Assembly: GCA_041694835.1 (NCBI GenBank)
Contig: JBGFRZ010000082.1
Coordinates: 52,266-116,265 of the forward strand
Length of the DNA stretch: 64,000 bases
Source: Ignavibacteria bacterium
GTDB taxonomy: Bacteria > Elusimicrobiota > Endomicrobiia > PHAN01
Direction: 5' to 3'
Numbering within the stretch: position 1 is the stretch's first letter; each line of letters opens with the position of its first letter. Of this stretch, positions 1 through 48,893 are shown in pieces. A program made the position numbers and the translations under genes. Under the pieces are notes generated by a model. That model was not told where the DNA came from. It saw nothing but the letters and a program-made list of their open reading frames with translations, and ran no database searches.

Positions 1-1511
1 ACAATGCCTTTTTCAATTTTTTCCTTGTTCGCTTCGTAAATTTTGTTCCATTTATCTTTTGTGCCGTAATACCTCTGCGAAATCGACTGCAACGTTTCTC
101 CGGGAAGCACCTTATGCGTTCTTGCGGCAGGTGGCGGCGGTGTTCTTTCAGGACGTCTGCGCATCTCCTCGGAAATAACAGACGGACTGGAGACCTCTAC
201 ATTTAAAATATCGGTAATGTTTTTTTCGGGAGTTTTTGTAAATTCCGCCGGTGAGGGCGGGGTTGATATTAAAACCGGAATAATCTCTTTTTTCTGGACA
301 GGCGCATAAGTGGATATTTCAGCGGTAAACTCCGTTAGAAGTAAGTCACCAGAGGCGGCCGGCCCCGATGAATATAGGGGAACTTCTAACGGGATAAATT
401 GTTTTTCTTGCACGAGAGCGGGTTCAGGCGGTGGTATCGGCAACTTTCTGTGTTCTTCGAATTTGACGGGATGGAATGTTTCCCGCGTTTTAACGACATC
501 TTTTTTTCTTTCACCGAAATAAACCGAAATACCGAACATATGACTCCCCGACATTTCAGACATACCCCCTAAAGGATACAACATCGCATAGTCGAAAGAA
601 ATATTTTTAATGTTCATTCCGAGACCCGCTGTAATCCTCCTGTAATTATTGCTGCCAAAATTGAACCCTGTCCTCAAAACAAGTACTTCGTTTAACAATT
701 TCTTTTCGACTCCCAAATTGACCGTCTGCCGTTCGGACGATATTACATAATCGGCGGCAAGCAGAAAATCTTTTTCCTCGTATGACGCTCCGAATACATT
801 TCCGGCCGGTCTCTTGTATTTTTTATTATCTTCGCTTTCAATCTCCGTGTGATAACCAAATTTTATATTGCCGAACCGCAAAATAACTCCCAATGGAAAA
901 GACATGAAATCTCTGTTATACGGTTCTCTAAATACGGGGTCGACTTTTTGATAATTATCTCGTATGGGAATTCTTATCAAATAATTTTTGACGCCAGCGC
1001 CGACGAAAACAAAATTATGCGGGTTCCACGAAAAGTTGAGCGCATAAATTTCTTCAGAATAATAATCACCGAGGGAAAGACCGCTGTAGCCTGCGCCAAA
1101 ACCGAAATTTCTAAAAGGTATTCCGAAAGAAAAAGAAGCGTTTGATATATTGCTCCTGTCATCTAGACCAATATGCAGTTTGCTGTAGCCAAACGAGAGA
1201 GTCGTATTTCTAAGAGACGAAACGCTCGATGGATTAAAAAACACAACTCCCGCATCCTCCGTCATAGAAGCCGCTGCCATACCGAGAGAACTTATGCGAG
1301 CGAAAGCAGGTTTTTCCTCGAAAGCCGCATAAAGGCAGACAATAGGCAATAGGCAGTGGGCAATAGTAAAATATAGGCAATAGGCAATAGGCAGTAGGCG
1401 GTAGTAGTTGGCGGTTGGCGATTTGTGATATGAATAACGAGCCACAAGCCACGAGCCACGAGCCACCAATAAACTTTTAAACTCTTGAACTATCCTCTGT
1501 CTTTTATTCAT
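1..1511 (-). CDS. FadL/OmpP1/PorV-like outer-membrane beta-barrel with C-terminal LysM domain (3' end runs off window start; start codon uncertain: ATG at 1511 or internal ATG ~1285/1264)
   Basis: Hand translation of the minus strand is open from 1511 to position 1. The N-terminal motif ARISSLGMAAAS..EDAGVVFFNPSSV matches the FadL-family signature SxGLGxA..ADDA...NPA. The same motif occurs in the ORF at 15423-17057. The C-terminus HKVLPGETLQSISQRYYGTKDKWNKIYEANKEKI is a typical LysM. It is not in the ORF track because there is no stop codon inside the window. Confidence 0.5.
   Translation of the reverse strand, partial: MNKRQRIVQEFKSLLVARGSWLVARYSYHKSPTANYYRLLPIAYCLYFTIAHCLLPIVCLYAAFEEKPAFARISSLGMAAASMTEDAGVVFFNPSSVSSLRNTTLSFGYSKLHIGLDDRSNISNASFSFGIPFRNFGFGAGYSGLSLGDYYSEEIYALNFSWNPHNFVFVGAGVKNYLIRIPIRDNYQKVDPVFREPYNRDFMSFPLGVILRFGNIKFGYHTEIESEDNKKYKRPAGNVFGASYEEKDFLLAADYVISSERQTVNLGVEKKLLNEVLVLRTGFNFGSNNYRRITAGLGMNIKNISFDYAMLYPLGGMSEMSGSHMFGISVYFGERKKDVVKTRETFHPVKFEEHRKLPIPPPEPALVQEKQFIPLEVPLYSSGPAASGDLLLTEFTAEISTYAPVQKKEIIPVLISTPPSPAEFTKTPEKNITDILNVEVSSPSVISEEMRRRPERTPPPPAARTHKVLPGETLQSISQRYYGTKDKWNKIYEANKEKIEKGI
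1290..1470. repeat. imperfect 7-8 bp periodic low-complexity repeat (ataggca / ggcaatag units, then agccacg units) overlapping the predicted signal-peptide coding region of the FadL/LysM gene
   Basis: The DNA shows aggcaataggcaataggcagtgggcaatag...ggcaataggcaataggcagtaggcggtag and gagccacaagccacgagccacgagccacc. On the minus strand this reads as a hydrophobic LLPIAYCLYFTIAHCLLPIVCLYAAF stretch. Confidence 0.6.
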
Positions 1512-11700: not shown

Positions 11701-13581
11701 TTGCATCAAAGACTGATGGACATTTTCAAGTTCCTTCATGTTTTTTGAATGTTCTTTTTCAAGCGATATTTTTTGAGAGTCAATCTCGTCTATGTCGGCC
11801 TTTATTGAATCGATTTCGGCCGAGAGTTTATCGACTGACTGATGGTATCTACTTTCAAGCATATTTTCCTGATGGGCAAAACGTTGCTTCAAACTTAAAT
11901 AATCTCTTTCCTTTTCTGCCATCTTCTGCTTAAAATCCATCTCAAGACGCGCTTTTTTACTTTCAGCGACCTTCAGCTTTTCTTTATAAGGTTCAACTTC
12001 CACAAAAAGTTTCTTTTTAGCGTTCTCAAAAGACCTGGTGCTTTCCAAAAGTTCCGCTTCCACTGAATTTTTTGCGGCTTCAACCTGGGATTTCTTTTGA
12101 GAAAGAAGTGAAGAGTACTCCGTCTTTATTTTCGAAAAATCTTCCTGGAACTTTTGATATTTATCCTCGATGAGTTTTTTCTCCTCGGAAAGAATTTCAA
12201 TTTGATGTTTATGTTGAAGATTCTTCTGTTCCTGGTTCGATTGCCAATCGTTTTTGAACTTTTCCATCTCTTCGTACTTTCCGGAGAGTTCACTTTGATA
12301 TTCTATTTTCTGGTTCAAAACTTCTTTTTCAAGATCAGTACATCTCAAAGAGATTCTCTTTTTTTCATTTTCAATATTTGTTTTGTATTTTTCTATTTCT
12401 GCGTTTTTCTCCCTTATCTTTATTTGAGCCTGGATTTTAATGTCTTCTATATCCTGATCCGCGACTCTTATCATATTCTCCCATTCGGATTTTTCCTGCT
12501 CATATTTCTGATGAAGCTCCTTGAGCTGTTTTTCAGCCAGAGATTTTGCCTCTTTGAACTCGTTGAAACGTTTTTCGCGAGCGGAACTTTCCTGCGTTTC
12601 CTGAAGCATCATGTCAATTTTTAGTTTATTGAAAGCATCTTCCCTCTCTTTCAATAGTTTCTCGTATTTCTCCTTTTCGGAAAGCGACTCCCTTTCCATC
12701 TCACTCATCTGAGCCACTAACTTTTCTTTTAAATCCTTAAGCAATATCTTTTTCGCATTCAGTTCCTGCTCATATATTATCTGACGCTGTTTCAAAGCCG
12801 AGCTGAATGCAAGCAATCCCTCTTTTTTATCGTTATAAATTTTCTGGAAGTTTGCTCTCATTTCGGAAAGATTTTTTTCAACACCATTCAACTGATTATT
12901 GTAATTGCCTTCTAATTCTTTTTTCTCCCGATGAAATTTTTCCTCTTCCTGCCGGGACTGGTTGACTCTGAGGGATATCTGTGCTTTTAATGCCACGATT
13001 TCCTCTTCCCTGCCTTTCAGTCTTGTTACAAATTCCCCTATTTCCTGCTGTGCTTTTTTCTCGAAGGCAAGAAGCTGACTTTCTATCTCTCTTAATTCCT
13101 GAGTGGATGAAATTATCTCTTTTTCATCTTCGGCTTTTTTTTCGTTTTCCCTGGTTTGCAAATTTACTTTTGTTTCGTCTATCTCGGTTATGATAGCTCT
13201 GATTTTTTGACCCCACTCTTTATCCTCTTCTTCTATCTTGCGCTCAACCCTTTGCAGTTCGTCATTCCATTTTTTTCTAAGCGAATTTATCGAGTCCTGA
13301 TGAAGTTGCATGTTGTTTGAAAGTTCGAGTTCAACAAGTTCAAGATGGATGGAAAGTTTTATTTTTTCATCTTCTTTCTCTTTTTCTTTCTTCCTGTAAT
13401 TTTCCCGCTCAACTTCGAGCATCTTTTCTATGTTTTCAAGTTGCTCACGCGCCGTTTTTTTTATGCTTTGTAAATCATGGCTGGCGGTAAGCTCTATCTT
13501 TTTCTCGTCGCACTCAATATCCGATGTCGCTTTTTTTTCGGCGACTGGTTCCTCTTTGTGTTTGATTAGCCACTTCCACAT
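8731..13581 (-). CDS. giant coiled-coil protein (1616 aa) with C-terminal TPR-like repeats
   Basis: Track ORF. It reads as ~1500 aa of SMC/myosin-tail-like coiled coil followed by LEILREFTRNNPSSAEAQQYMSLCFYNTDKLDDALMAIKKAISIEPKN (TPR). Confidence 0.5.
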   Translation of the reverse strand: MWKWLIKHKEEPVAEKKATSDIECDEKKIELTASHDLQSIKKTAREQLENIEKMLEVERENYRKKEKEKEDEKIKLSIHLELVELELSNNMQLHQDSINSLRKKWNDELQRVERKIEEEDKEWGQKIRAIITEIDETKVNLQTRENEKKAEDEKEIISSTQELREIESQLLAFEKKAQQEIGEFVTRLKGREEEIVALKAQISLRVNQSRQEEEKFHREKKELEGNYNNQLNGVEKNLSEMRANFQKIYNDKKEGLLAFSSALKQRQIIYEQELNAKKILLKDLKEKLVAQMSEMERESLSEKEKYEKLLKEREDAFNKLKIDMMLQETQESSAREKRFNEFKEAKSLAEKQLKELHQKYEQEKSEWENMIRVADQDIEDIKIQAQIKIREKNAEIEKYKTNIENEKKRISLRCTDLEKEVLNQKIEYQSELSGKYEEMEKFKNDWQSNQEQKNLQHKHQIEILSEEKKLIEDKYQKFQEDFSKIKTEYSSLLSQKKSQVEAAKNSVEAELLESTRSFENAKKKLFVEVEPYKEKLKVAESKKARLEMDFKQKMAEKERDYLSLKQRFAHQENMLESRYHQSVDKLSAEIDSIKADIDEIDSQKISLEKEHSKNMKELENVHQSLMQKMEDEKKNHSLALESFNVKLKEEKGSIEAKIEELNSVVISEQKRFDETVSAKNDENNQLEKVLLEKTAVLQKNLDATRFELEGKKKIAIESLERTKVGFNFFKEKCESEISESERHIQAISKKVNDLISANKYEIEEKESIISAELELVRKKLEESSKKLDETRKKHADILIEFDNKITFLNASRETNIHKYEKEIKILELENENEKKLINEEIEKIENESEEMKSRHAELLAEKKREIEKLKSDHLRFEQEYKARLNHMESEFNKVKELLISKITSNEMELAQLEEKHPGMVATRQQQIQELNAKLKEQEDNYTKNRDSYFQSHEQFVKRIEKRKENLENQMKAIKIKQEQELSEVEEKLKVGQQNLKVLEDEMKTKFENSSQNYAAEKHSLDRKRDELEHKLKALVGTNRDEVRILDRQLYVLKTQMALREKSWHEEEKKQNENYENERKVLAEELTMLQNNFLEVQNAGKTALCSKTSELNAFINKSQASLEQTKNELKNKETTWTDTNKRLEEQISTLQKTIREQGDYWSNLKSQKEEEMKELGNKITTWESYVTDEEQRITKEHLAEKEKIEREMEKLSSEMEKLKKETGETISGKIKTQRELEAKYDDEKNRLESEWVLQEAKLLKERETLLAEVNLWESKLKESENSSAKIIGEIEKEIESRKLKVALSKSEFETARLRHEKKSKNLLKKLEKDLTELLRKYNDYLSESKNKIYMEEEKITTLSKRLELRNERLQNETKKRGEELQKYIDELKGVLEETIDKNKSQHKLSSQAIENLRKELADAGASYMKDSPEISAQLKLYEDKNTELISMVREISELENSIMSEKDRFTKLLELKMNQLDVLEAGMQMTTKEIMAESIRRREMRENLKKFADDFMGKMVSYGQTPKEVRPMLLKRAVELCEQGSYSESLEILREFTRNNPSSAEAQQYMSLCFYNTDKLDDALMAIKKAISIEPKNENLISFEKELTNKINNKSGGKNGR

Positions 13582-15422: not shown

Positions 15423-17057
15423 TTATCTAAGTTGGTTCAGGAACTGCGGAACCACTCTGTTTGTTGGATCTATTTCGAGCACCCGCATCCAGACCTCTTT
15501 TGCTTTTTCCGGCTGATCCATCATAAAGAAAGCGCTTCCCATAATTTCGTAAGCTGTCACATGGTTCGGTTCAAGATTCAGCACTTCCTGGGCTTTAATA
15601 AGGGCTTTGTCATATTTGCCGTCTATTATGGCTTGTCTTGCGTCGAAGATCTTCTGATCTATTATAGTAAATCCTGCGATTGTTTCCTTGAATGCTTCCG
15701 TAGGCGGGATGCCCATTTCTTTTTCAATCCTGTTCAACAAAGCAAGTAGCTTCATGTTCTCGGGTTTTTTGTAATAAGCATATCTGAAAGAGTTTATGGC
15801 GCCCGTGTCGTCGCCTTCTATATATGCTACAATCCCTTTTCTTGTCGCTACGGCATCTTCAGTATCTCCTACCACAGTGTCTATGTGACCTATTATTACC
15901 TGTAGTTTTTTGGACATATTCTGTGCATCTTTATTGGCCGGGTCTATATCAAGAAGTTTTTCAAGTCGATTGTGGGAAAGAAGCATGTCTCCTTTTCTGT
16001 AGGATTCTATAGCTTCTTTCATAAGACGCACCACTATAGCCGCTCTGTTAGCGCTTACCGATTCCCCTATTTTCCACGAACCGGATATTCTATGTGAAAG
16101 TCCGAGCTCATGCAAAGCAAACGCATAATCAAGCCCGTAATCTTTATATTTGAAACCAAAACCAGCGGTTGTCTCTCTTATTCTACCTTCGCCCTCGAAT
16201 CCGAGACGCATGGCAAGATAATTCATAAGCCAGTATTCTGTCCCTATGTGCCAGCCGAGATTTGCGTTAAGCGATTTTTCAATATCAAACGCCAGTAAAA
16301 ACTTTTTTTTCATAAACGGATGGGCCGCGCCGACTCTGAATATCATAGGAAGTTTGTCTTCCGTATCGCCAAAGCTCGTAGAAATTATGTTCCTGACACC
16401 GAAAGCAATTTTTATATCGGGCAACGTGTCATTTACTCCTTCAAGGAGCAGCGCAAGATCGAATGTTAGGGCTCCGCTTATAGAATCGGCCAGAGCATGG
16501 TTCATGTACTTCCCAGAAAGACCTATGGAGAGATTTTCTCTTATTCTTCTGCCGTATGCTGCCATTAAAGCCAGACGGGAATCTTCAAATGTGCCTAAAT
16601 TTTCAATCTTAACTATGTCCTGTGTAGTTGGGTCTATGTTTATCGCTATTTTTTCAAAACCGCCCGAGTGGAGACGGACGATGTTTGCTCCGAAAACTCC
16701 CAACTTTGCGGTTGGATGCACATACGACAGAAAGTTATAGTTGGTATCGGCAAAAAGCGTGGCATGGAGAGCCATAACTTCTTTCCTGTCAAGCTGGGTC
16801 AGAGCTGCCGGATTCCAGTAAGTAGCGGAGGCATCGTCGGAAACCGCGAAAAACGCTTTTCCCATACCAAGTGATTTAGCGCCAGCACCCCATGAAAGGA
16901 ACTGCCCAGGCTGGCCGCCGGTGGCAGCGGCAAAGACAGAGGATAGCGGCGAGAGACAAGAGACGAGAGAACAAATAAAAACAAAAGCCATCCCTGACAA
17001 AGTTTTTGCGACTTTGTTCGCTAGTTTTGTCGAGAGTTTTGTTTTTGAATTTTTCAT
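15423..17057 (-). CDS. FadL/OmpP1/PorV-like outer-membrane beta-barrel with C-terminal TPR domain (544 aa)
   Basis: A signal peptide is followed by GAKSLGMGKAFFAVSDDASATYWNPAAL, the FadL-family N-terminal signature. The body is beta-strand-rich. The C-terminal ~200 aa are TPR repeats. Confidence 0.55.
   Translation of the reverse strand: MKNSKTKLSTKLANKVAKTLSGMAFVFICSLVSCLSPLSSVFAAATGGQPGQFLSWGAGAKSLGMGKAFFAVSDDASATYWNPAALTQLDRKEVMALHATLFADTNYNFLSYVHPTAKLGVFGANIVRLHSGGFEKIAINIDPTTQDIVKIENLGTFEDSRLALMAAYGRRIRENLSIGLSGKYMNHALADSISGALTFDLALLLEGVNDTLPDIKIAFGVRNIISTSFGDTEDKLPMIFRVGAAHPFMKKKFLLAFDIEKSLNANLGWHIGTEYWLMNYLAMRLGFEGEGRIRETTAGFGFKYKDYGLDYAFALHELGLSHRISGSWKIGESVSANRAAIVVRLMKEAIESYRKGDMLLSHNRLEKLLDIDPANKDAQNMSKKLQVIIGHIDTVVGDTEDAVATRKGIVAYIEGDDTGAINSFRYAYYKKPENMKLLALLNRIEKEMGIPPTEAFKETIAGFTIIDQKIFDARQAIIDGKYDKALIKAQEVLNLEPNHVTAYEIMGSAFFMMDQPEKAKEVWMRVLEIDPTNRVVPQFLNQLR
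16911..16991. repeat. pyrimidine/purine-skewed low-complexity tract (ggcagcggcaaagacagaggatagcggcgagagacaagagacgagagaacaaa) encoding the signal-peptide h-region MAFVFICSLVSCLSPLSSVFAAATGG
   Basis: Direct reading of the DNA and its minus-strand translation. Confidence 0.55.
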
Positions 17058-17093
17058 TTCATCAAACCCTGTCCTCTACTCTCTCCTCCGCTT

Positions 17094-17462
17094 TTAATGT
17101 ATGACTCCAATTTTTCTTAAAGCCACTATCTTCCCGCCATCGACGGAAACCACACAGATATATCCGCCCTTGGCGACGTAATGACCGTTTTCGTCGCGAC
17201 CGTCCCACAGGATTGTATCTCCAAAAAATTCGAGATGCTTGACGGGGCGGCCAAAAAGATCGAAAATTTTTACCGCAATTCCAACGTCGGTCTGATTTGA
17301 TTTTTTTACAAGGATGCTTGTGGAAGTTTTTCTCGAATCGAACGGATTGGGATAGTTTGAAAGAAATATGTCAGAAGATGATGCGACGGATGCCGTCAAC
17401 AAAAGAATTGATGAGGCGAAAGGGATAAGTAAAAGATAATTTAAAAAGTTGATGTGCTTCAT
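17094..17462 (-). CDS. small secreted protein consisting of a signal peptide plus T9SS type-A C-terminal sorting domain (FlgD-Ig-like CTD) only (122 aa)
   Basis: LSNYPNPFDS...VKIFDLFGRPV..L....ILWDGRDENGHYVAKGGYICVV...KIVALRKIGVIH matches the TIGR04183/PF13860 CTD pattern. It is the first gene of the operon. Confidence 0.5.
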   Translation of the reverse strand: MKHINFLNYLLLIPFASSILLLTASVASSSDIFLSNYPNPFDSRKTSTSILVKKSNQTDVGIAVKIFDLFGRPVKHLEFFGDTILWDGRDENGHYVAKGGYICVVSVDGGKIVALRKIGVIH

Positions 17463-17971
17463 AAATTGCCTTCGGTAACCCGGCCGCCATAATCTCGCAT
17501 TTTGCTTGATGTTAGGCCCGTATCCTGACCTATAGTCAGAATGACCCGATTCAACATCGGGATCGGCTTTGCGTCCTCCGGTTTCCCGGAGTTTGCCATT
17601 TATCGGACAATCCTTACGTTTCCATCTCCGCCACGGCGGAAGGGGGCTATCAAAATAAAAATGCTACCGAACTTCCGCCCGGTAGCATAAAGATAGGGGG
17701 TCCTAAAACTTGTTGCAAACCACTACAACCGCAACCGCTAACAAATTAAACTTACTACACCTTCTCTCGGTAGCCCGGCCAGCTCCCCCGACATTATGTC
17801 GGGGGCATCGCTCCGATTTCCCGAAACGATTTTGATAGCCCCCTATCTTTAGCTCCGCGGCTTTGCGTCCTCCGGTTTCCCGAAGTTTGCCTTTATCGCA
17901 ATATATATATAATAAAATTTATGACATTTGTCAAGGTTTTTTTAACAGCCGAAATTCTGCCAAAAATTGCA
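17463..17971. other. structured 510-bp non-coding leader/element: two 41-bp direct repeats (17565-17605, 17859-17899) flanking ~250 bp with perfect hairpins and a 15-bp inverted repeat
   Basis: The direct repeat ggctttgcgtcctccggtttcccg(g/a)agtttgcc(a)tttatcg occurs twice. gggggctatcaaaat at 17641 pairs with attttgatagccccc at 17826. The hairpin cccccgacattatgtcggggg has a 9-bp stem and gctaccgaacttccgcccggtagc a 7-bp stem. No ORF >=60 aa lies in this region. Confidence 0.5.
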
Positions 17972-21321: not shown

Positions 21322-21600
21322 AAATAGGAAATAGGGAACGATGGAAAGAACGGTGCCAGATGTCAGATGCAGGTTAAAACGACAGATACACGTTGTAGCG
21401 GCACCGCCTTGCAGTGCAAATAATTGGCATCGTAAAGCTTGTCCTCGCAGGGGAACGATGCATCTACCTGTATTCTGTATTTGCTTTTCCTTTATCCTGC
21501 ATCCTGTATCTGTTTTTTGGTATCCGGGATCCGGTATCCGCTATCGCTTTTGTCTGTTCTACTGCTCCGACCTCTGACCTCTCATCTCTGACCTCTGTTT
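21322..21600. repeat. long imperfect hairpin-like intergenic element: purine-rich arm (aggcaaagaaaaataggaaatagggaacgatgg...cagatgtcagatgcagg) then pyrimidine-rich arm (ttcctttatcctgcatcctgtatctg...gacctctgacctctcatctctgacctctg)
   Basis: Word-level reverse complementarity between the two halves, e.g. gatgcagg versus cctgcatc and cagata versus tatctg. No ORF is present. Confidence 0.45.
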
Positions 21601-25414: not shown

Positions 25415-25430
25415 AAAACCTCCTGACTCC

Positions 25431-25545
25431 GCTATAGCGGGAAGTTAAAGGTCAAAGGATAAAGGGTAAAGGTCAAAATATTTAGATTTTATACCTTTAA
25501 TTTTAACCTTTCACCTTAAATTTTAACCTTTATATTCTTCTTATC
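25431..25545. repeat. purine-arm/pyrimidine-arm imperfect hairpin element (aaaggtcaaaggataaagggtaaaggtcaaaat ... tacctttaattttaacctttcaccttaaattttaaccttt)
   Basis: The two arms are reverse complements at word level. The element is intergenic between the M20 amidase and preA. Confidence 0.45.
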
Positions 25546-26769: not shown

Positions 26770-26900
26770 GGCGACATAGCGACGCATCGACTCAGCGACA
26801 TAATAGCAGAGCAACAGAGCAGTAGCGAGTAGCGGGTAGATAGTAGATAGGGGGAACAACCCTCGCTACTCGCTACCATCTACTATCTACTATTCGCTAT
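26770..26900. repeat. purine-arm/pyrimidine-arm imperfect hairpin element (cagagcagtagcgagtagcgggtagatagtagatag-ggggaacaacc-ctcgctactcgctaccatctactatctactattcgc)
   Basis: Sub-words are exact reverse complements: tagcgagtagcg pairs with cgctactcgcta, and gtagatagtagatag pairs with ctatctactatctac. The element is intergenic. Confidence 0.5.
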
Positions 26901-26903
26901 TTG

Positions 26904-28742
26904 CTATCTACCATCCAACTCCAGTTCTTTCAACTTTTCCTGCTTCGGTATTCCTTCTTCATCCCATCCGCGATGGACATAATACTCCATAACCATTTTT
27001 GCGACATTCGGGACCACGCCTTTCGCTTTTCCTTCTTTTTTCGGATATACGGTAATTCTCGACGGTTCCAGGTCATCTTTTCTTGAAATGCCGAGGCGCG
27101 TGTTGTAGAGCCGTTTTAAATCGAACAATCGCTCGCCTGTTTTCATATAGTCGTCGAGTGTCCAGTCCCATCCACAAACGGCGTTGACCCAGTTTGAAAT
27201 CTGCGACGGACCCACACGGGCGTGAAACAGAAATTTACAGAGTCCGAGCGGATTAAATAATGATATAAAATTTTGCATCTCAAAAACAATTTTCGGTTTG
27301 TCGGTTTCTTCAAACTGGTTCGGCGGGGCGGTGATTCCCAGATCTTTGCAAGGGACGCCCCTATCAAGAAAGTATGTGAGACCTTCAAGATGACACGCAC
27401 CTCTTGCGGCGGTCGCGTAGTTGATTGCCATAGAGACATGTCCTCTCGGGTCGTGGGCGGGAAAGTCAAGTCCTTTGTTGTGAGAAACATACTCGATAGT
27501 ATTTTTGCCGATGGCTTTTGCCGCATCTCTGACACCTTTTGCAAGGAGAACACCGATGTTTTTTTTGTAAGCGGTCATCTTAATTATTTCAACGAGAGTC
27601 TTCGCGTCGCCCCATTTGAACTCAACGTCTCCAGTGTCTGCTCTTGTGATTTTTCCTTTCTCGTAACACTCAATCGCAAACGCGGCGACAGAGCCCATGG
27701 AAATCGTATCCATACCGAGCTTATTTGTGAGTTCGTTTATATACGCCAATACATAGAGGTCGTTATTTAAAACATTTGAGCCGAGCATCGCGACGGTCTC
27801 ATACTCGGGATAGTGGCCACAGAAACTTCCGAAGTTCTTTAACTCGCCCTTGACGAGCTTGCCGCAGCCGATGGGACATGCCCAGCAAGCGTAGTGCTTG
27901 ACCCAGATTTTTTCTCTCATCGCCTGTCCCGAAATTTTTACAATATCGGGATACGTTCCAATGGCGTAATTTTTTATCGGAAGGTCGCCGAACGACTCAA
28001 CTGCAGGAGAGCCGCCGGCAGTACCAAATTCTCCGAGGGCTTTTGCATTTTCTTTTATCGCGGGTATTTCTTCTTTAAGCAGTGCTCTTAATTTTTCGGG
28101 GTCTGCGACGGCGACTCTTTTCCCCTGACCTTTTACGACGATAGCTTTAAGGTTTTTTGAGCCCATGTTGGCACCGATGCCCGAGCGCGCCGCAAAACGG
28201 GAATTGGGCGGGTCAAAACAAATTGCGGCTATACTGACAAGATTTTCTCCAGCAGGGCCTATCGCGGCGACGAGATGCTTCTCATGTCTCTTTGAGAGAA
28301 TTTCACCGGTTTCGTAGGTATCCTTTCCCCACAAATCACTGGCATCCTGTATCCTGCATCCTGCATCTATTATTAGATAAACCGGCTTATTGGATTTTCC
28401 CGTTATTAAAATTCCGTCATATCCGAGCATCCTGAATTCCGTCGGCCAATGGCCGCCCACGGTCGCTTCGTTCCAAATGCCCGTAAGCGGCGATTTTGCG
28501 CAGACGGACATTTTGCAGGCAGTCGGCACGACTGTCCCGGTTAAAAGCCCCGACAAAAACAAAATTGGATTTTCTTCTGAAAGTGGCGCGAGGTTAACAG
28601 GGGCTTCGTTGTAAAGAATCTTTGCGGCAAGACCCGAGCCGAGCGTATATTTTTTGACATCCGTCTCATTGATTGGTTTCTCGCCGATTTTTCCCGACGA
28701 CAAATCAACGGTTAAAATTTTCCCATGAAATCCGTTCGGCAT
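26904..28742 (-). CDS. aldehyde:ferredoxin oxidoreductase (tungsten-containing AOR family)
   Basis: The N-terminus MPNGFHGKILTVDLSSGKIGEKPINETDVKKYTLGSGLAAKILY matches the AOR N-terminus pattern (M.G..GKILRVDL..G.I). Length is 612 aa. Confidence 0.8.
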   Translation of the reverse strand: MPNGFHGKILTVDLSSGKIGEKPINETDVKKYTLGSGLAAKILYNEAPVNLAPLSEENPILFLSGLLTGTVVPTACKMSVCAKSPLTGIWNEATVGGHWPTEFRMLGYDGILITGKSNKPVYLIIDAGCRIQDASDLWGKDTYETGEILSKRHEKHLVAAIGPAGENLVSIAAICFDPPNSRFAARSGIGANMGSKNLKAIVVKGQGKRVAVADPEKLRALLKEEIPAIKENAKALGEFGTAGGSPAVESFGDLPIKNYAIGTYPDIVKISGQAMREKIWVKHYACWACPIGCGKLVKGELKNFGSFCGHYPEYETVAMLGSNVLNNDLYVLAYINELTNKLGMDTISMGSVAAFAIECYEKGKITRADTGDVEFKWGDAKTLVEIIKMTAYKKNIGVLLAKGVRDAAKAIGKNTIEYVSHNKGLDFPAHDPRGHVSMAINYATAARGACHLEGLTYFLDRGVPCKDLGITAPPNQFEETDKPKIVFEMQNFISLFNPLGLCKFLFHARVGPSQISNWVNAVCGWDWTLDDYMKTGERLFDLKRLYNTRLGISRKDDLEPSRITVYPKKEGKAKGVVPNVAKMVMEYYVHRGWDEEGIPKQEKLKELELDGR

Positions 28743-31998: not shown

Positions 31999-32049
31999 TA
32001 TTTTTCTATCCCCTATTTTCTATCCCCTATTTTCTATCCTCTATTCTTT
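31999..32049. repeat. 3 tandem copies of a ~14-bp unit (tattttctatcccc)
   Basis: The DNA reads ctatttttctatcccctattttctatcccctattttctatcctctattc, intergenic between the biotin-carrier and CoA-transferase genes. Confidence 0.6.
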
Positions 32050-32337: not shown

Positions 32338-32449
32338 AATCAGAGACAAGAGAACAGAGGTGAGAGGACAGAGGTCAGGGAAAAACCTCTCACCTCTCAT
32401 CTCTCTCCTCTATTCGCTATTCGCTGTCCACTATTCTCTATTCCCCAAT
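32338..32449. repeat. purine-arm/pyrimidine-arm imperfect hairpin element (cagagacaagagaacagaggtgagaggacagaggtcaggg-aaaaac-ctctcacctctcatctctctcctctattcgc...)
   Basis: Direct reading of the DNA. It has the same architecture as the elements at 21322, 25431 and 26770. Confidence 0.45.
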
Positions 32450-33985
32450 TTACAGCGGAATGTTGCCGTGTTTTCTGTCGGGTTTTTTTGAACGTTTGTT
32501 TTTCATAACGGAAAGCGCTGAAACAATTTTAAGACGCGTTTCTTCGGGCAGAATAACATCGTCGATATAGCCGAACGACGCCGCAATGTAAGGCGAAGCG
32601 AATTTTTCGGTGTATTCTTTCATCTTGTCCTGTCTTGTTTTTTCGGGTTGGGACGAGGACTCTATCTCTTTCTTGAAAATTATGTTTGCCGCGCCAAGCG
32701 GACCCATAACAGCTATCTCGGCCGAAGGCCATGCGAACACAAAGTCGGCCCCGAGATGGCGGCTGCACATCGCTATGTATCCACCACCGTAGGCCTTCCT
32801 CAATATCACGGTAAGTTTCGGAACGGTCGCCTCAGAATATGCATAAAGCATCTTCGCTCCGTGCCTGATGACGCCCGAATGCTCCTGCTCAATGCCGGGG
32901 AGATATCCCGGGATATCGGCGAAAGTTACGATAGGTATGTTAAATGAATCGCAAAATCTTATGAATCTTGCAGCCTTGTTGGAAGAATCTACGTCAAGAA
33001 CGCCGGCGAGAAACTTGGGCTGATTGGCGATTATACCGACGGATTCCCCGTCGAGATGTGCAAAACCTACGACTATATTTTTCGCGTGCATCGCCTGGAC
33101 TTCAAAAAAATCTCCGTCATCGAAAACGGCTTTTATGACGTCCCTGACATCATACGGTTTTTTGGGGTCGGAGGGAACAATCGAATTTAAGTCGGCAGAA
33201 GGTGGGGGGCGCCGCTCGGCGAGGGGTGGTTTTTGTGCGTTATTATCTGGCAAGTAAGAAAGCAAAGTTTTAATCTGTTCAATACACTCCTTTTCACTTT
33301 CGGCATAAAAATGCGCATTGCCGGTTATTTCGTTATGAACCCTTGCGCCGCCGAGATCTTCCATACTTATTTCCTCTCCAAGAACGGTCTTTATAACCTC
33401 CGGGCCGGTGATAAACATCTTCGATATTTTGTCAACCGTAAAAACAAAGTCAGTCAGAGCGGGGGAGTAAACCGCTCCTCCGGCACAAGGCCCGAGTATG
33501 ACCGAAATCTGCGGGATTACCCCGGAAGAAAGGGTGTTTCTGTAAAATATTTCTCCGTAACCGGCGAGAGCGTTGATGCCTTCCTGTATCCTCGCTCCAC
33601 CTGAGTCGTTTATGCCTACTAGCGGGATACCTGAACTTAACGCGAAATCCATTATTTTAGTAATCTTCCTGGCGTGCATCTCTCCCAGAGAACCTCCGGC
33701 GGACGTGAAGTCTTGAGAAAATACAGCGAGACACCTCTCGTTAACTTTTCCATGACCAACAATTACGCCATCGGCCGGAATTTCTTTTTTGTCAAGTCCG
33801 AAATTGGATGAGCGGTGTTTAACGAAAGGGTCTATCTCGACGAAGCTTCCCTTGTCAAACAGCAAATCAAGCCTTTCCCTTGCTGTAAGCTTGCCGGAGT
33901 CGTGCTGTTTTTTAACAGCGACGCTGCCGCCGAGAGAAATTAGATTCCCGCGACTTTTGCCGAGTTCTTCGTTTTTATCCGTCAT
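32450..33985 (-). CDS. acyl-CoA carboxyltransferase (methylmalonyl-CoA decarboxylase alpha / propionyl-CoA carboxylase beta family)
   Basis: GINDSGGARIQEG and the two-domain carboxyltransferase layout. Length is 511 aa. Confidence 0.85.
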   Translation of the reverse strand: MTDKNEELGKSRGNLISLGGSVAVKKQHDSGKLTARERLDLLFDKGSFVEIDPFVKHRSSNFGLDKKEIPADGVIVGHGKVNERCLAVFSQDFTSAGGSLGEMHARKITKIMDFALSSGIPLVGINDSGGARIQEGINALAGYGEIFYRNTLSSGVIPQISVILGPCAGGAVYSPALTDFVFTVDKISKMFITGPEVIKTVLGEEISMEDLGGARVHNEITGNAHFYAESEKECIEQIKTLLSYLPDNNAQKPPLAERRPPPSADLNSIVPSDPKKPYDVRDVIKAVFDDGDFFEVQAMHAKNIVVGFAHLDGESVGIIANQPKFLAGVLDVDSSNKAARFIRFCDSFNIPIVTFADIPGYLPGIEQEHSGVIRHGAKMLYAYSEATVPKLTVILRKAYGGGYIAMCSRHLGADFVFAWPSAEIAVMGPLGAANIIFKKEIESSSQPEKTRQDKMKEYTEKFASPYIAASFGYIDDVILPEETRLKIVSALSVMKNKRSKKPDRKHGNIPL

Positions 33986-42888: not shown

Positions 42889-42918
42889 AATTTTTCTCCT
42901 GTGAAATCCTTCGGATTT

Positions 42919-43431: not shown

Positions 43432-43701
43432 CGATTCCCTCCCATGAAATCCTTCGGATTTCTACATGAGTGTGTATCAGTGCCGACTTAGGCATTCGCT
43501 TCCTGCAAACATTATAGTAATTATTTTTGGTTTTTCAAAAGGTGCTACACTCAAATGTACTGCGGGGGTTGACCCCGTTAGAAATTATAGCGCTCTTAAG
43601 AGGAAATTAAAAGTTTCCCTGAACTCCTCAAATCATCAGAGATTTCTAACGGGGTTGACTAAAAAATTCGTATTTGATAGAATAACTCGCATATAATTTG
43701 A

Positions 43702-43787
43702 CGCCGGGGTGGCGGAACTGGCAGACGCAAGGGACTTAAAATCCCTCGGGGGGCAACCTCCATGTGGGTTCGATTCCCACCCTCGGC
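43702..43787 (+). tRNA. tRNA-Leu (anticodon UAA), long variable arm
   Basis: GCCGGGGTGGCGGAACTGGCAGACGC-AAGGGACTTAAAATCCCTC-GGGGGGCAACCTCCATGT-GGGTTCGATTCCCACCCTCGGCA gives a cloverleaf with a 7-bp acceptor stem, an anticodon loop CTTAAAA and a T-arm GGGTTCGATTCCC. A TATAAT lies 6 bp upstream. Confidence 0.8.
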
Positions 43788-43799
43788 AAAAGGAGAATT

Positions 43800-48710: not shown

Positions 48711-48893
48711 ATGATTTCTAACTTTCGCGCTTTCGTGGTAAAGTTTTTTCTCTGTGTTCTCCTTGCCCCGTTAGATGCTTGCTATCTAACGGAGTGAATG
48801 TCTCTGTGGTGAATTTTAGCGAAGCGCCAGTGAACCCTAAATATCATCTGTGGGCGGCGCCTTATATGACTTTCGGCAGGAGCTATTGACTTT

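Follow-up and report, generated by a model that had tools for sequence, protein, structure and literature searches.

Heptanucleotide repeat arrays as the probable interior of a signal peptide in an Elusimicrobiota surface-protein gene

The window considered here is a stretch of 64,000 nt from assembly GCA_041694835.1 (contig JBGFRZ010000082.1, positions 52,266 to 116,265 of the forward strand), which is deposited as Ignavibacteria bacterium and placed by GTDB within the Elusimicrobiota. At its left edge, on the minus strand, lies gene A, which codes for a PorP/SprF-like barrel with a LysM domain, and whose 5' end is assembled from arrays of 7-bp units (heptamers) that probably encode the interior of a Sec-type signal peptide. 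We put at roughly 60% the probability that a genome-wide process generates such repeats and that its spill-over into this gene is tolerated or co-opted, with no dedicated switch involved; the term genome-wide rests on an excess of period-7 repeats measured in the 64 kb of the window. What appears to be new is that heptanucleotide simple sequence repeat (SSR) arrays of an Elusimicrobiota lineage have been absorbed into signal-peptide coding regions. A second barrel gene of the same operon, gene B, has a leader with a much weaker repeat and is discussed below.

Between 1335 and 1474 the gene strand is a composite of 7-bp tandem arrays placed head-to-tail. Tandem Repeats Finder (TRF) reports period-7 repeats at 1340-1399 (8.1 copies, score 58), 1374-1404 (4.4 copies, score 41) and 1437-1466 (4.3 copies, 91% matches, score 53). 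From the ATG at 1511 the translation reads MNKRQRIVQEFKSLLVARGSWLVARYSYHKSPTANYYRLLPIAYCLYFTIAHCLLPIVCLYA/AFEEKPAFARISSLG..., where the slash, here and below, marks the predicted cleavage site, and the mature protein begins AFEEKP. The nonamer ctttatgcg joins the repeat tract, which runs to 1335, to the mature coding sequence, which runs from 1325. Perfect repetition extends over at most 3 units for TGCCTAT (21 nt) and 2.9 for GTGGCTC. An earlier sequence-only reading had described the signal-peptide core of gene A as encoded by short repeats with a period not divisible by three, and translation and TRF bear out both the peptide and its coordinates; the period of 7-8 bp given there is to be corrected, as TRF and a scan for matches at fixed lags agree on exactly 7. 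The Pfam scores of the protein lie below the cutoffs, at a borderline 21.9 bits for PorP_SprF (cutoff 22.3) and 17.6 bits for LysM (cutoff 20.9).

The case for translation of the tract centers on the junction between leader and mature protein, where the four nearest homologues of gene A align: the sequence is CLYA/AFEE in the window, CLYA/AFED in the homologue P0003, CYG/AFED in P0002, and SRA/SFED in P0001. More distant metagenomic relatives have the same layout, with ALA/QFED, AAA/AFKD, and AHA/EFDE. The residues F64, E65, A71, and R72 are invariant among the homologues, and all of them lie upstream of the next ATG, which encodes Met78. A start at Met78 would remove this FE...AR motif and would leave a barrel without a signal peptide. 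The leaders of the homologues end exactly at the junction and are about 19-30 residues long in the eight read from their first Met, including 26 residues in both P0002 and P0003. The sole in-frame start nearer to the junction than the GTG at 1445 is a TTG at 1349-1347, which would give an 8-residue leader, MPIVCLYA. Given the homology at the junction and the lack of a usable nearer start, the TGCCTAT arrays must be coding, and the leader of gene A would be translated and act in export.

The most likely start of gene A is the ATG at 1511, which is favored because its spacing fits the operon and because MNKRQR resembles the starts of homologues (MKKTKY, MDKKIE, MKQINV). The intergenic gaps in the operon are 36, 11, 15, -11, -23, and -4 nt, and an 18-nt gap at this ATG is in keeping with them. 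No clear Shine-Dalgarno (SD) sequence is found at ATG 1511, but only about half of the genes in the window have one; SD evidence does not discriminate between this ATG and the GTG starts.

The annotated leader of the homologue P0001 is a separate matter. On its contig (L001, 8080-8110) it contains gtcattctgagcgcagcgaagaatctc, translated as VILSAAKNL, which we take to be a palindromic element common in environmental genomes. The extension that it adds at the 5' end is probably spurious, and the protein would in fact begin at MCLIISV...

In the reading that we prefer, the repeat arrays between the conserved n-region start (MNKRQR...) and the cleavage site CLYA/AFEE would form, once translated, the inner part of a Sec-type signal peptide. 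The (GTGGCTC)4 array would supply positive charge, the degenerate CGCCAAC units a polar linker, and the (TGCCTAT)3+2 arrays the hydrophobic core LLPIAYCL...CLLPIVC. A 7-bp array is read through three registers and gives one and the same 7-residue peptide in any frame; a stop-free, pyrimidine-rich unit therefore specifies a hydrophobic segment in any register. TGCCTAT encodes CLLPIAY in every frame, with a mean Kyte-Doolittle hydropathy of 1.93. CTATTTA, from the gene A homologue on contig L002, encodes LFTIYYL (mean 1.66). GTGGCTC encodes VARGSWL, with one Arg per heptapeptide, and (GTGGCTC)4 gives VARGSWLVAR. The arrays in hydrophobic h-regions are those with the most hydrophobic heptapeptides (1.93 and 1.66), and the intergenic units of the window encode hydrophilic peptides or contain stops. 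This pattern fits a filter in which only stop-free arrays with a hydrophobic translation survive in signal-peptide cores. No other part of a protein tolerates arbitrary hydrophobic sequence as readily as the h-region, and the arrays would be nearly neutral to selection.

The leader of gene A has the general form of those of PorV/PorP/FadL-like barrels cleaved by signal peptidase I, with a charged n-region, a hydrophobic core, and small or aliphatic residues (A and L) at -1 and -3. Its n-region carries a charge of +3 to +8, and its best 12-residue Kyte-Doolittle window scores 2.16. Both gene A and gene B have a positive n-region and then a hydrophobic core that spans some 10 residues or more; in gene B these are MKNSKTKLSTKLANKVAKTLSG and MAFVFICSLVSCL, in that order. 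The cleavage motif is L-Y-A/A in gene A, identical in P0003, and V-F-A/A in gene B, with an invariant mature end in 15 orthologues. The mature N-terminus is conserved, as in such barrels: [AS]FE[DE]..GAR in gene A and AATGGQPGQF in gene B. In contrast to the leaders of the homologues, of about 19-30 residues, that of gene A has 40-62 residues, is almost wholly made of tandem repeats, and has Pro, His, and Tyr in its core. We considered gene A as a lipoprotein and rejected this from the sequence, as PIVC is not a lipobox.

A comparable arrangement is found on L002, the contig that encodes P0003. This contig is syntenic with the gene A region, the gene upstream ending in ...VVIAR* like the CHU_C protein of the window. 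Here (CTATTTA)3 encodes the h-region FAIYYLLFTT, (AAAGGNN)3 makes up the spacer ahead of the ATG, and the DNA of the junction matches that of the window.

Repeats of this kind are not special to the leaders of the two barrel genes, as the sequence-only reading had presented them; most period-7 tracts in the window are intergenic. With a tract defined as 17 or more matches out of 21 at lag 7, a lag scan finds 10 in the window and none in 30 shuffles that preserve dinucleotide content. Three tracts are found at lag 14, which is a multiple of 7, and lags 4-13 and 15 give 0-1 (lag 7 aside). TRF returns 22 period-7 rows in the window, compared to a mean of 1.6 in 20 shuffles, the best of which scores 38. 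On the map of open reading frames (ORFs), and in a densely coding window, six of the ten tracts are intergenic, three form the leader of gene A, and one lies within the gene for an aldehyde:ferredoxin oxidoreductase (AOR). The last reads gatgcag gatgcag gatacag gatgcca and is translated as ...YLIIDAGCRIQDASDLWGK, including IDAGCRIQDAS; as it lies in the N-terminal domain of AOR, heptamer tracts also occur inside conserved coding sequence. Arrays in frame are likewise found within other ORFs of this lineage. Outside gene A each site has a separate unit. Three intergenic composites (25430-25540, 26800-26925, and 32340-32450) combine an array with its own reverse complement, folding into long hairpins, of which that at 32.4 kb stops 3 nt ahead of the ATG of a biotin-carrier gene, whereas the gene A tract and the tract at 21.5 kb have direct arrays only. 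No Rfam family was found over the heptamer tracts. The tract in the leader of gene A is one of many short heptanucleotide arrays in this Elusimicrobiota genome that resemble the short tandemly repeated repetitive (STRR) sequences of cyanobacteria and lie mostly between genes. The features are collected in Table 1.

Table 1. Coordinates of the leader repeats, related genes, and heptamer tracts in the window (a slash in a peptide marks the predicted cleavage site).
Feature	Position	Strand	Remarks
Gene A, PorP/SprF-like barrel + LysM	1..1511, cut by the window edge	-	Translation from ATG 1511
Signal-peptide c-region and predicted signal-peptidase I junction, ...LYA/AFE	1320..1334, cut between 1326 and 1325	-	Homologue alignment
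(TGCCTAT)3 (1393-1373), 10-nt spacer attttactat, tgcccac, (TGCCTAT)2, tgtctgc	1335..1393	-	Hydrophobic core LLPIAYCLYFTIAHCLLPIVC
(CGCCAAC)2 (1420-1407), tactac, cgcctac	1394..1420	-	Degenerate heptamers; polar stretch SPTANYYR
TTG, then (GTGGCTC)4	1439..1469 (array 1466-1439)	-	Encodes LVARGSWLVAR; GTG in all three frames
ATG, likeliest start of gene A	1509..1511	-	18 nt past the CHU_C stop (1530-1532)
Gene B, PorV/UPF0164-like barrel + TPR	15423..17057	-	Pfam UPF0164 31.3 bits (cutoff 21.4)
Gene B signal peptide, MKNSKTKLSTKLANKVAKTLSGMAFVFICSLVSCLSPLSSVFA/AATGG	16929..17057	-	n-region and mature end AATGGQPGQF common to orthologues, 72-81% identity
Weak period-7 pyrimidine tract (GTCTCTY) in gene B leader	16931..16970	-	Possible 3' hairpin arm
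Purine-rich spacer aaaagcggaggagagagtagaggacagggtttgatgaa upstream of gene B ATG	17058..17095	-	Inverted repeat I2; possible 5' arm
Two tandem c-di-GMP-I riboswitch aptamers heading the operon of genes B and A	17471..17900	-	Rfam
Intergenic heptamer composite	21488..21598 (lag-7 tract 21516-21598)	-	Units GAGGTCA, GGATACC, TACAGGA; direct arrays only; fold z = -0.25
Intergenic inverted arrays AAAGGTT / ACCTTTN, long hairpin	25442..25532 (lag-7 tract 25442-25477)	-	Fold z = -5.3
Intergenic inverted arrays TAGATAG + TAGCGAG with complements, hairpin	26820..26917	-	Fold z = -3.2
Heptamer tract, GATGCAG-type, inside the aldehyde:ferredoxin oxidoreductase coding sequence	28338..28373	-	AFOR_N E = 1.2e-69
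Intergenic heptamer composite, hairpin	32340..32450 (lag-7 tract 32383-32429)	-	CGAATAG; GAGAGGT / ACCTCTC; fold z = -3.7

Cyanobacterial STRR sequences were reportedly described by Mazel in 1990, and over-represented heptameric SSRs by Mrazek in 2007. The window arrays are not STRR in the strict sense, as the units are TGCCTAT, GTGGCTC, GAGGTCA, GGATACC, and others, in place of the classical STRR1-3 units, and the host is not a cyanobacterium, and they belong only to the wider class of heptameric SSRs. Over-representation of heptameric SSRs has been documented, with units such as GGGAATC in Xanthomonas and GGGGAYT in Nostoc (PMC4692102). The heptamer TAACTGA occurs in Beggiatoaceae, Cyanobacteria, and Bacteroidetes, and MacGregor found repeats at the very start or end of a few ORFs, with no tie made to export signals (PMC4679880). 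The window arrays share with bacterial heptanucleotide SSRs the head-to-tail arrangement of a few to many 7-bp units, the strong excess of period 7 over other periods, the mostly intergenic location, often near start codons, the frequent inverted pairs able to form stem-loops, and an occasional overlap with the end of an ORF. They differ in that many units occur side by side, with no single dominant one, in that arrays appear to form the interior of a signal peptide, and in that the host belongs to the Elusimicrobiota, for which a literature search that was not aimed at that phylum returned no report of heptamer repeats.

Several points weigh against the explanation of the gene A tract as a signal peptide produced by spill-over of this process. 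Export competence is deduced from hydrophobicity, charge, the -1 and -3 residues (A and L), and homology. When read from ATG 1511, the leader is unusual in its 62 residues, its 38-residue n-region, and a core that includes Pro, His, and Tyr. Over 1300-1470 each of the three frames is open because TGCCTAT and GTGGCTC have no stops in any frame, and the open frame is therefore no proof of translation. No close orthologue of gene A is present in the data searched (best 30% identity): a homology search gave only 4 matches, all at 30% identity or less, and a metagenome scan gave nine loci at 24-29% identity, all with ordinary leaders and no heptamers. The close relatives of gene B were seen with 10-kb flanks, beyond which gene A falls. 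The protein database search returned gene B's own sequence (P0006) and did not return that of gene A; the source record may leave gene A unannotated or list it as a pseudogene, possibly due to its repeat-built leader; exact-sequence look-ups of the CHU_C protein, gene B, a carboxyltransferase, and P0004 gave no records. Finally, neutral tolerance and function (or weak selection) are not separable by sequence alone.

Gene B provides a point of comparison, both for the repeats and for their possible role in RNA structure. It scores 20.8 bits against Toluene_X/FadL (cutoff 29.7), and its homologues are named 'PorV/PorQ family protein' at NCBI; for these barrels 'PorV/PorP-like' would be a better label than 'FadL'. 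The search gave 292 homologues, of which P0006 is 100% identical, and the relatives at 72-81% include Elusimicrobia bacterium HGW-Elusimicrobia-1, by which gene B assigns the window to the Elusimicrobiota. Close orthologues all start at the same n-region, upstream of the pyrimidine tract, and all end at the invariant AATGGQPGQF; the shared n-region and mature end therefore mark the leader of gene B as an ordinary conserved signal peptide. The sequence-only reading had given the peptide MAFVFICSLVSCLSPLSS correctly as encoded by this tract. Its repeat is weak, with 2.7 copies of GTCTCTC at 16952-16970 and a TRF score of 31, which is inside the range of the shuffles. With 15 of 21 lag-7 matches the tract is among the top 0.3% of positions and alone is not significant, and its pyrimidine content of 73% is moderately higher than the 51-61% of other signal peptides in the window. 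Because close relatives bear a clear array at the same position, the tract probably derives by decay from an array of this heptamer class. In these relatives (L132-L134, from HGW-Elusimicrobia-1, and L137), (CTATCCC)3 encodes FFYPLSPIPCLF at the leader position and (TAGGGTN)4 lies directly upstream of the ATG. Two independent samples of HGW-Elusimicrobia-1 (99.9% identity) do not differ in these arrays. Apparent indels between these two samples were rejected as repeat variation, since they are scaffold N-gaps.

Among the alternative explanations, the first is that a hairpin of inverted arrays, enclosing the start codon, throttles the initiation of translation or makes an RNase III site, with the coding role of the 3' arm being secondary. 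In this case a purine-rich arm upstream of the SD sequence and AUG would pair with a pyrimidine-rich arm in the leader coding sequence, as in the 5' untranslated region (5'-UTR) of hmw. The hmw1A and hmw2A genes of H. influenzae have an array of 11-63 perfect ATCTTTC units in the 5'-UTR, which forms a hairpin processed by RNase III and has a graded effect on expression (PMC12721329). The relatives L132 and L137 offer the clearest parallel, as (TAGGGTN)4 pairs with (CTATCCC)3 around the SD sequence and AUG of gene B, with a minimum free energy (MFE) of -49.6 (z = -3.8) and duplex z scores of -4.0 and -3.2. In L135 a 20-bp stem of (AGUGAAU)3 and (AUUCACU)n is predicted at the CHU_C gene (z = -2.8), and pairings are also predicted in L001 (z = -2.5) and L007 (z = -4.05). 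In the window, the spacer at 17058-17095 pairs with 16931-16967 of gene B (dG -32.7); the MFE structure includes this pairing, the significance of which varies with the control (z = -2.7 or -0.9; p = 0.01 or 0.19). The three intergenic composites of the window are strong hairpins (z -3.2 to -5.3). However, gene A, the principal site, has no such pairing: the structure of its leader RNA is no better than that of shuffles (fold z = +1.3; duplex z = -1.2), and a hairpin in this leader was rejected. The orthologues of gene B in L135 and L136 have neither arrays nor pairing, and any hairpin at gene B is sporadic and not conserved. L132 and L137 share the same units and provide no independent covariation, and inverted arrays could come from template switching without a selected function. 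The resemblance to hmw, an array at the 5' end of a surface gene that pairs with a purine-rich stretch, is confined to gene B, where it is seen in L132 and L137 and, in weak form, in the copy of the window; in contrast to hmw there are only 3-4 units, the 3' arm is coding, some close orthologues and gene A lack the feature, and the pairing is a predicted one. As a general account of the leader arrays the hairpin is unlikely. For gene B itself, the earlier suggestion of a downstream start is at odds with all orthologues, which start upstream of the tract. The tract of gene B is coding and may also be the 3' arm of a hairpin, a pairing that is clear in the two relatives and weak in the window.

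Some further arrays were noted around these genes. The stem at the CHU_C gene of L135, a 77%-identity relative, is formed by (AGTGAAT)3 upstream of the start (12068-12105) and by the reverse-complement (ATTCACT)n in the 5' coding sequence (12212-12251; LVFTIYYLLFTIH). In the window, a 14-bp unit, TAGGGGATAGAAAA, is repeated three times at 32002-32047 (96% matches, score 81), between the biotin-carrier and CoA-transferase genes, and its core, GGGGATAG, is the reverse complement of CTATCCC, the unit of the gene B leader in the relatives.

The second alternative is a contingency locus, in which a slipped-strand change in unit number between ATG 1511 and the mature region flips the surface protein on and off. 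The sequence-only reading had proposed the leader repeats as such a phase-variation substrate. The precedent is that of opa in Neisseria, where CTCTT repeats in the coding sequence of the leader peptide switch expression at around 1e-3 per generation (PMC3960869). As in opa, the unit is not a multiple of three, lies in the signal-peptide coding sequence of an outer-membrane protein, between the likely start and the cleavage site (with ATG 1511, TTG 1469, or a GTG as start), and encodes hydrophobic residues. Moreover, it takes the present arrangement of the arrays for ATG 1511 to be in frame, and the leader arrays at gene A and equivalent positions differ between relatives, from which it follows that they turn over. 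The opa genes form a multigene family with long perfect arrays in a host-adapted pathogen. In contrast, the arrays of gene A are interrupted and have at most 3 perfect units, and similar arrays, spread through the genome without relation to surface genes, flank housekeeping genes and occupy intergenic spacers. Heptamer switching at hmw operates at 11-63 units (PMC12721329). Slippage may also be buffered, as the GTG of (GTGGCTC)4 is present in all three frames and simulated slips of +/-1 or +/-2 units always leave an in-frame leader of 40-47 residues, with a charged n-region and the same hydrophobic core; ATG 1511 itself drops out of frame. One slip run meant for block 2 altered block 1, and any 7-nt change gives the same frame shift. 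The operon is probably already controlled by tandem c-di-GMP riboswitches, the gene B tract is not significant, and the gene B leader arrays are identical in the two independent samples of the close relative. A dedicated phase-variation switch at the leader of gene A is consequently unlikely, and we give a contingency locus slightly less weight than the hairpin.

Repeat-built leaders are found beyond this operon; five are counted in all, from three protein contexts and two phyla or more. In a scan of 185,579 species genomes, exact (TGCCTAT)3 occurs at 120 loci or more, against about 0.3 expected on our own estimate; the scan covered this single unit. The loci are spread over at least eight phyla, including Cyanobacteria, Bacteroidota, Planctomycetota, and Nitrospirota, and reach 46 units among the matches listed. 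Also among the matches listed (L003-L122), the arrays beside (TGCCTAT)n frequently consist of units that differ by one mismatch (AATAGGG, ACTAGGC, AATGGGC), a pattern suggestive of point mutation and renewed expansion. A heptamer vocabulary common to the window and these loci of other phyla was considered and rejected, as only TGCCTAT, the unit searched, is shared. In a SpoIID-domain protein of the Nitrospirota (L020), which has a strong SD sequence, (TGCCTAT)3-4 lies within the signal peptide MRIWSIRVAVFVLFIAYCLLPIASFA/ETT. In an RlpA-like protein of the Thermodesulfovibrionales (L007), with DPBB and SPOR domains, (TGCCTAT)3-4 lies in the signal peptide MKTSAGIYSKDKGQRAKGKRRRVANLAYCLLPIAFYLSSC/, followed by the lipobox LSSC, and the n-region comes from a second array of the (AGGGCAA) type. 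Other listed loci are plainly 5'-UTR arrays (L011, L013, L091), and some long ORFs across arrays look spurious.

The third alternative takes the leader as a transferable cassette of about 130 nt, copied between unrelated genes by recombination or horizontal transfer as a ready-made signal or anchor peptide. It comes from the comparison with P0004, a FliG-domain protein of another genome, with the leader MVARGSWLVAR..LLPIAYCLFFTIAYCLLPTARLYA. The common layout is a start codon, (GTGGCTC)n, a variable block, (TGCCTAT)3, WTTTTACTAT, and (TGCCTAT)2-3. The two leaders are 55% identical over 66 residues on unrelated host proteins, the similarity starts exactly at (A/T)TG-GTGGCTC, the blocks have the same order, and the spacer peptide is YFTI in one and FFTI in the other. 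The homologue of P0004 in the window has at that position an ordinary leader, MKKLKQLKNLKQSAVALLLALSSFVYLYG. The variable block of P0004, RQSPVTSHQS, implies by back-translation from the protein a unit other than the CGCCAAC block of the window; the composite in P0004 is read from protein, not DNA. Against transfer, a HMMER search of 1.84 billion representatives with the leader gave one weak match, a pure (ARGSWLV)n translation, and a word-index search with the leader only found nothing, which does not support a widely shared cassette. The arrays could also be juxtaposed independently in genomes that use the same units, and hallmarks of transposition were not seen. A cassette is accordingly doubtful, and a little more so than the switch.

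A broader reading builds on these cases, namely that heptamer arrays are recurrent raw material for slippage-proof, fast-remodelled N-terminal targeting sequences and, together with hmw-like hairpins, tune a c-di-GMP-controlled surface machine. Pyrimidine-rich units would provide frame-independent hydrophobic cores, and GTGGCTC or AGGGCAA charged n-regions, GTGGCTC also supplying start codons in every frame. Inverted arrays around the start codon would form hmw-like mRNA hairpins, and arrays and hairpins together would tune or switch the surface machine of free-living Elusimicrobiota. We regard this as speculative, with about the same low likelihood as the contingency locus.

It has also to be considered that gene A is an incipient pseudogene, in which repeat expansion overwrote the original signal peptide and impaired export. 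The leader is unusually long, with Pro, His, and Tyr in its core, and the gene A protein, in contrast to that of gene B, was not returned by the database search. The gene is among the least conserved in the operon, at 30% identity or less compared to 76-81% for gene B, although gene A is compared here with the more distant L001, where CHU_C is at 42%. Nevertheless, the frame is intact from ATG 1511 to the window edge, over 503 codons, with recognizable barrel and LysM domains; hydrophobicity of the core, charge, and cleavage motif are retained, and comparable array-bearing leaders occur on SpoIID and RlpA-like proteins. Such inactivation is very improbable. That the tract is non-coding, with gene A starting downstream and the repeats being a 5'-UTR or intergenic element (or a 5'-UTR hairpin, as had been offered earlier), is hardly credible, since open frames across stop-free units, the mostly intergenic tracts of the window, and the clear 5'-UTR arrays at L011, L013, and L091 are outweighed by the 8-residue leader left by TTG 1349-1347, the loss of the invariant motif and signal peptide from Met78, the aligned signal peptides of all homologues, and the absence of significant RNA structure in the leader.

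Such tracts are treated by gene finders and annotators as spurious 5' extensions or as non-coding. In gene A the repeat is, by homology, the putative signal peptide, and this bears on the calling of start codons in repeat-rich genomes. Simple-sequence expansion would be a concrete route to remodel or create export signals. The case also calls for caution, in that an out-of-frame repeat in the leader of a surface protein need not be a phase-variation switch, and before a switch is called the length of the array, the genome-wide background, and alternative in-frame starts should be checked. This lineage could help to address what sets the period at 7 and why one unit recurs across phyla.

The operon in which genes B and A reside is headed by two riboswitch aptamers, RF01051 at 17471-17607 (45.2 bits; gathering cutoff 35) and RF03167 at 17765-17900 (60 bits; gathering cutoff 59). 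The whole eight-gene surface-protein operon, from 17462 to 1 on the minus strand, is probably under the control of c-di-GMP. Its members are a small FlgD_ig-like protein; the PorV-like barrel with TPR; a 604-residue fusion of FliF_C-like, FliG_M, and FliG_C domains with TPR and an N-terminal signal or anchor; proteins of 1616 and 1015 residues without Pfam matches; a coiled-coil protein; a 1212-residue fn3/Ig protein with a CHU_C tail, of the kind associated with the type IX secretion system (T9SS); and the PorP/SprF-like barrel with LysM. The operon is syntenic in L132, L135, L136, L137, and L001. Conservation among the relatives is 70-81% for gene B and the FliG-like protein, but only 33-49% for the large proteins. 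No flagellar genes were seen in the annotated part of the window (about 1-36 kb). A rotor-type FliG within a T9SS-flavored, c-di-GMP-controlled operon may point to an undescribed envelope machine.

A number of minor observations can be added. On contig L002, AGCGAAT and GGAAGTG tracts lie in frame at 2891-2970 in a histidine-kinase ORF, in the HATPase_c region, and encode RANSEQRIANSGGQTAIVGSGKSEVGS; the AGCGAAT unit is also found in the window at 26.9 and 32.4 kb. L002 and L137, the latter a 78-79% relative, are from the same sample, ERR14788558. Elsewhere in the window, a 17-nt motif, aaatccgaaggatttca, forms a small hairpin at 42902-42918 and 43445-43461 (minus strand), ahead of the SD sequences of two neighboring genes (starts 42888 and 43431). 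Palindromes of the form cccgttaga...tctaacgggg occur at 43573-43654 and 48766-48775, and caccttttgaaaaagggtg hairpins at 43531 and 44608; the palindromes and these hairpins surround a tRNA gene (43703-43788), at which gene orientation changes from minus to plus.

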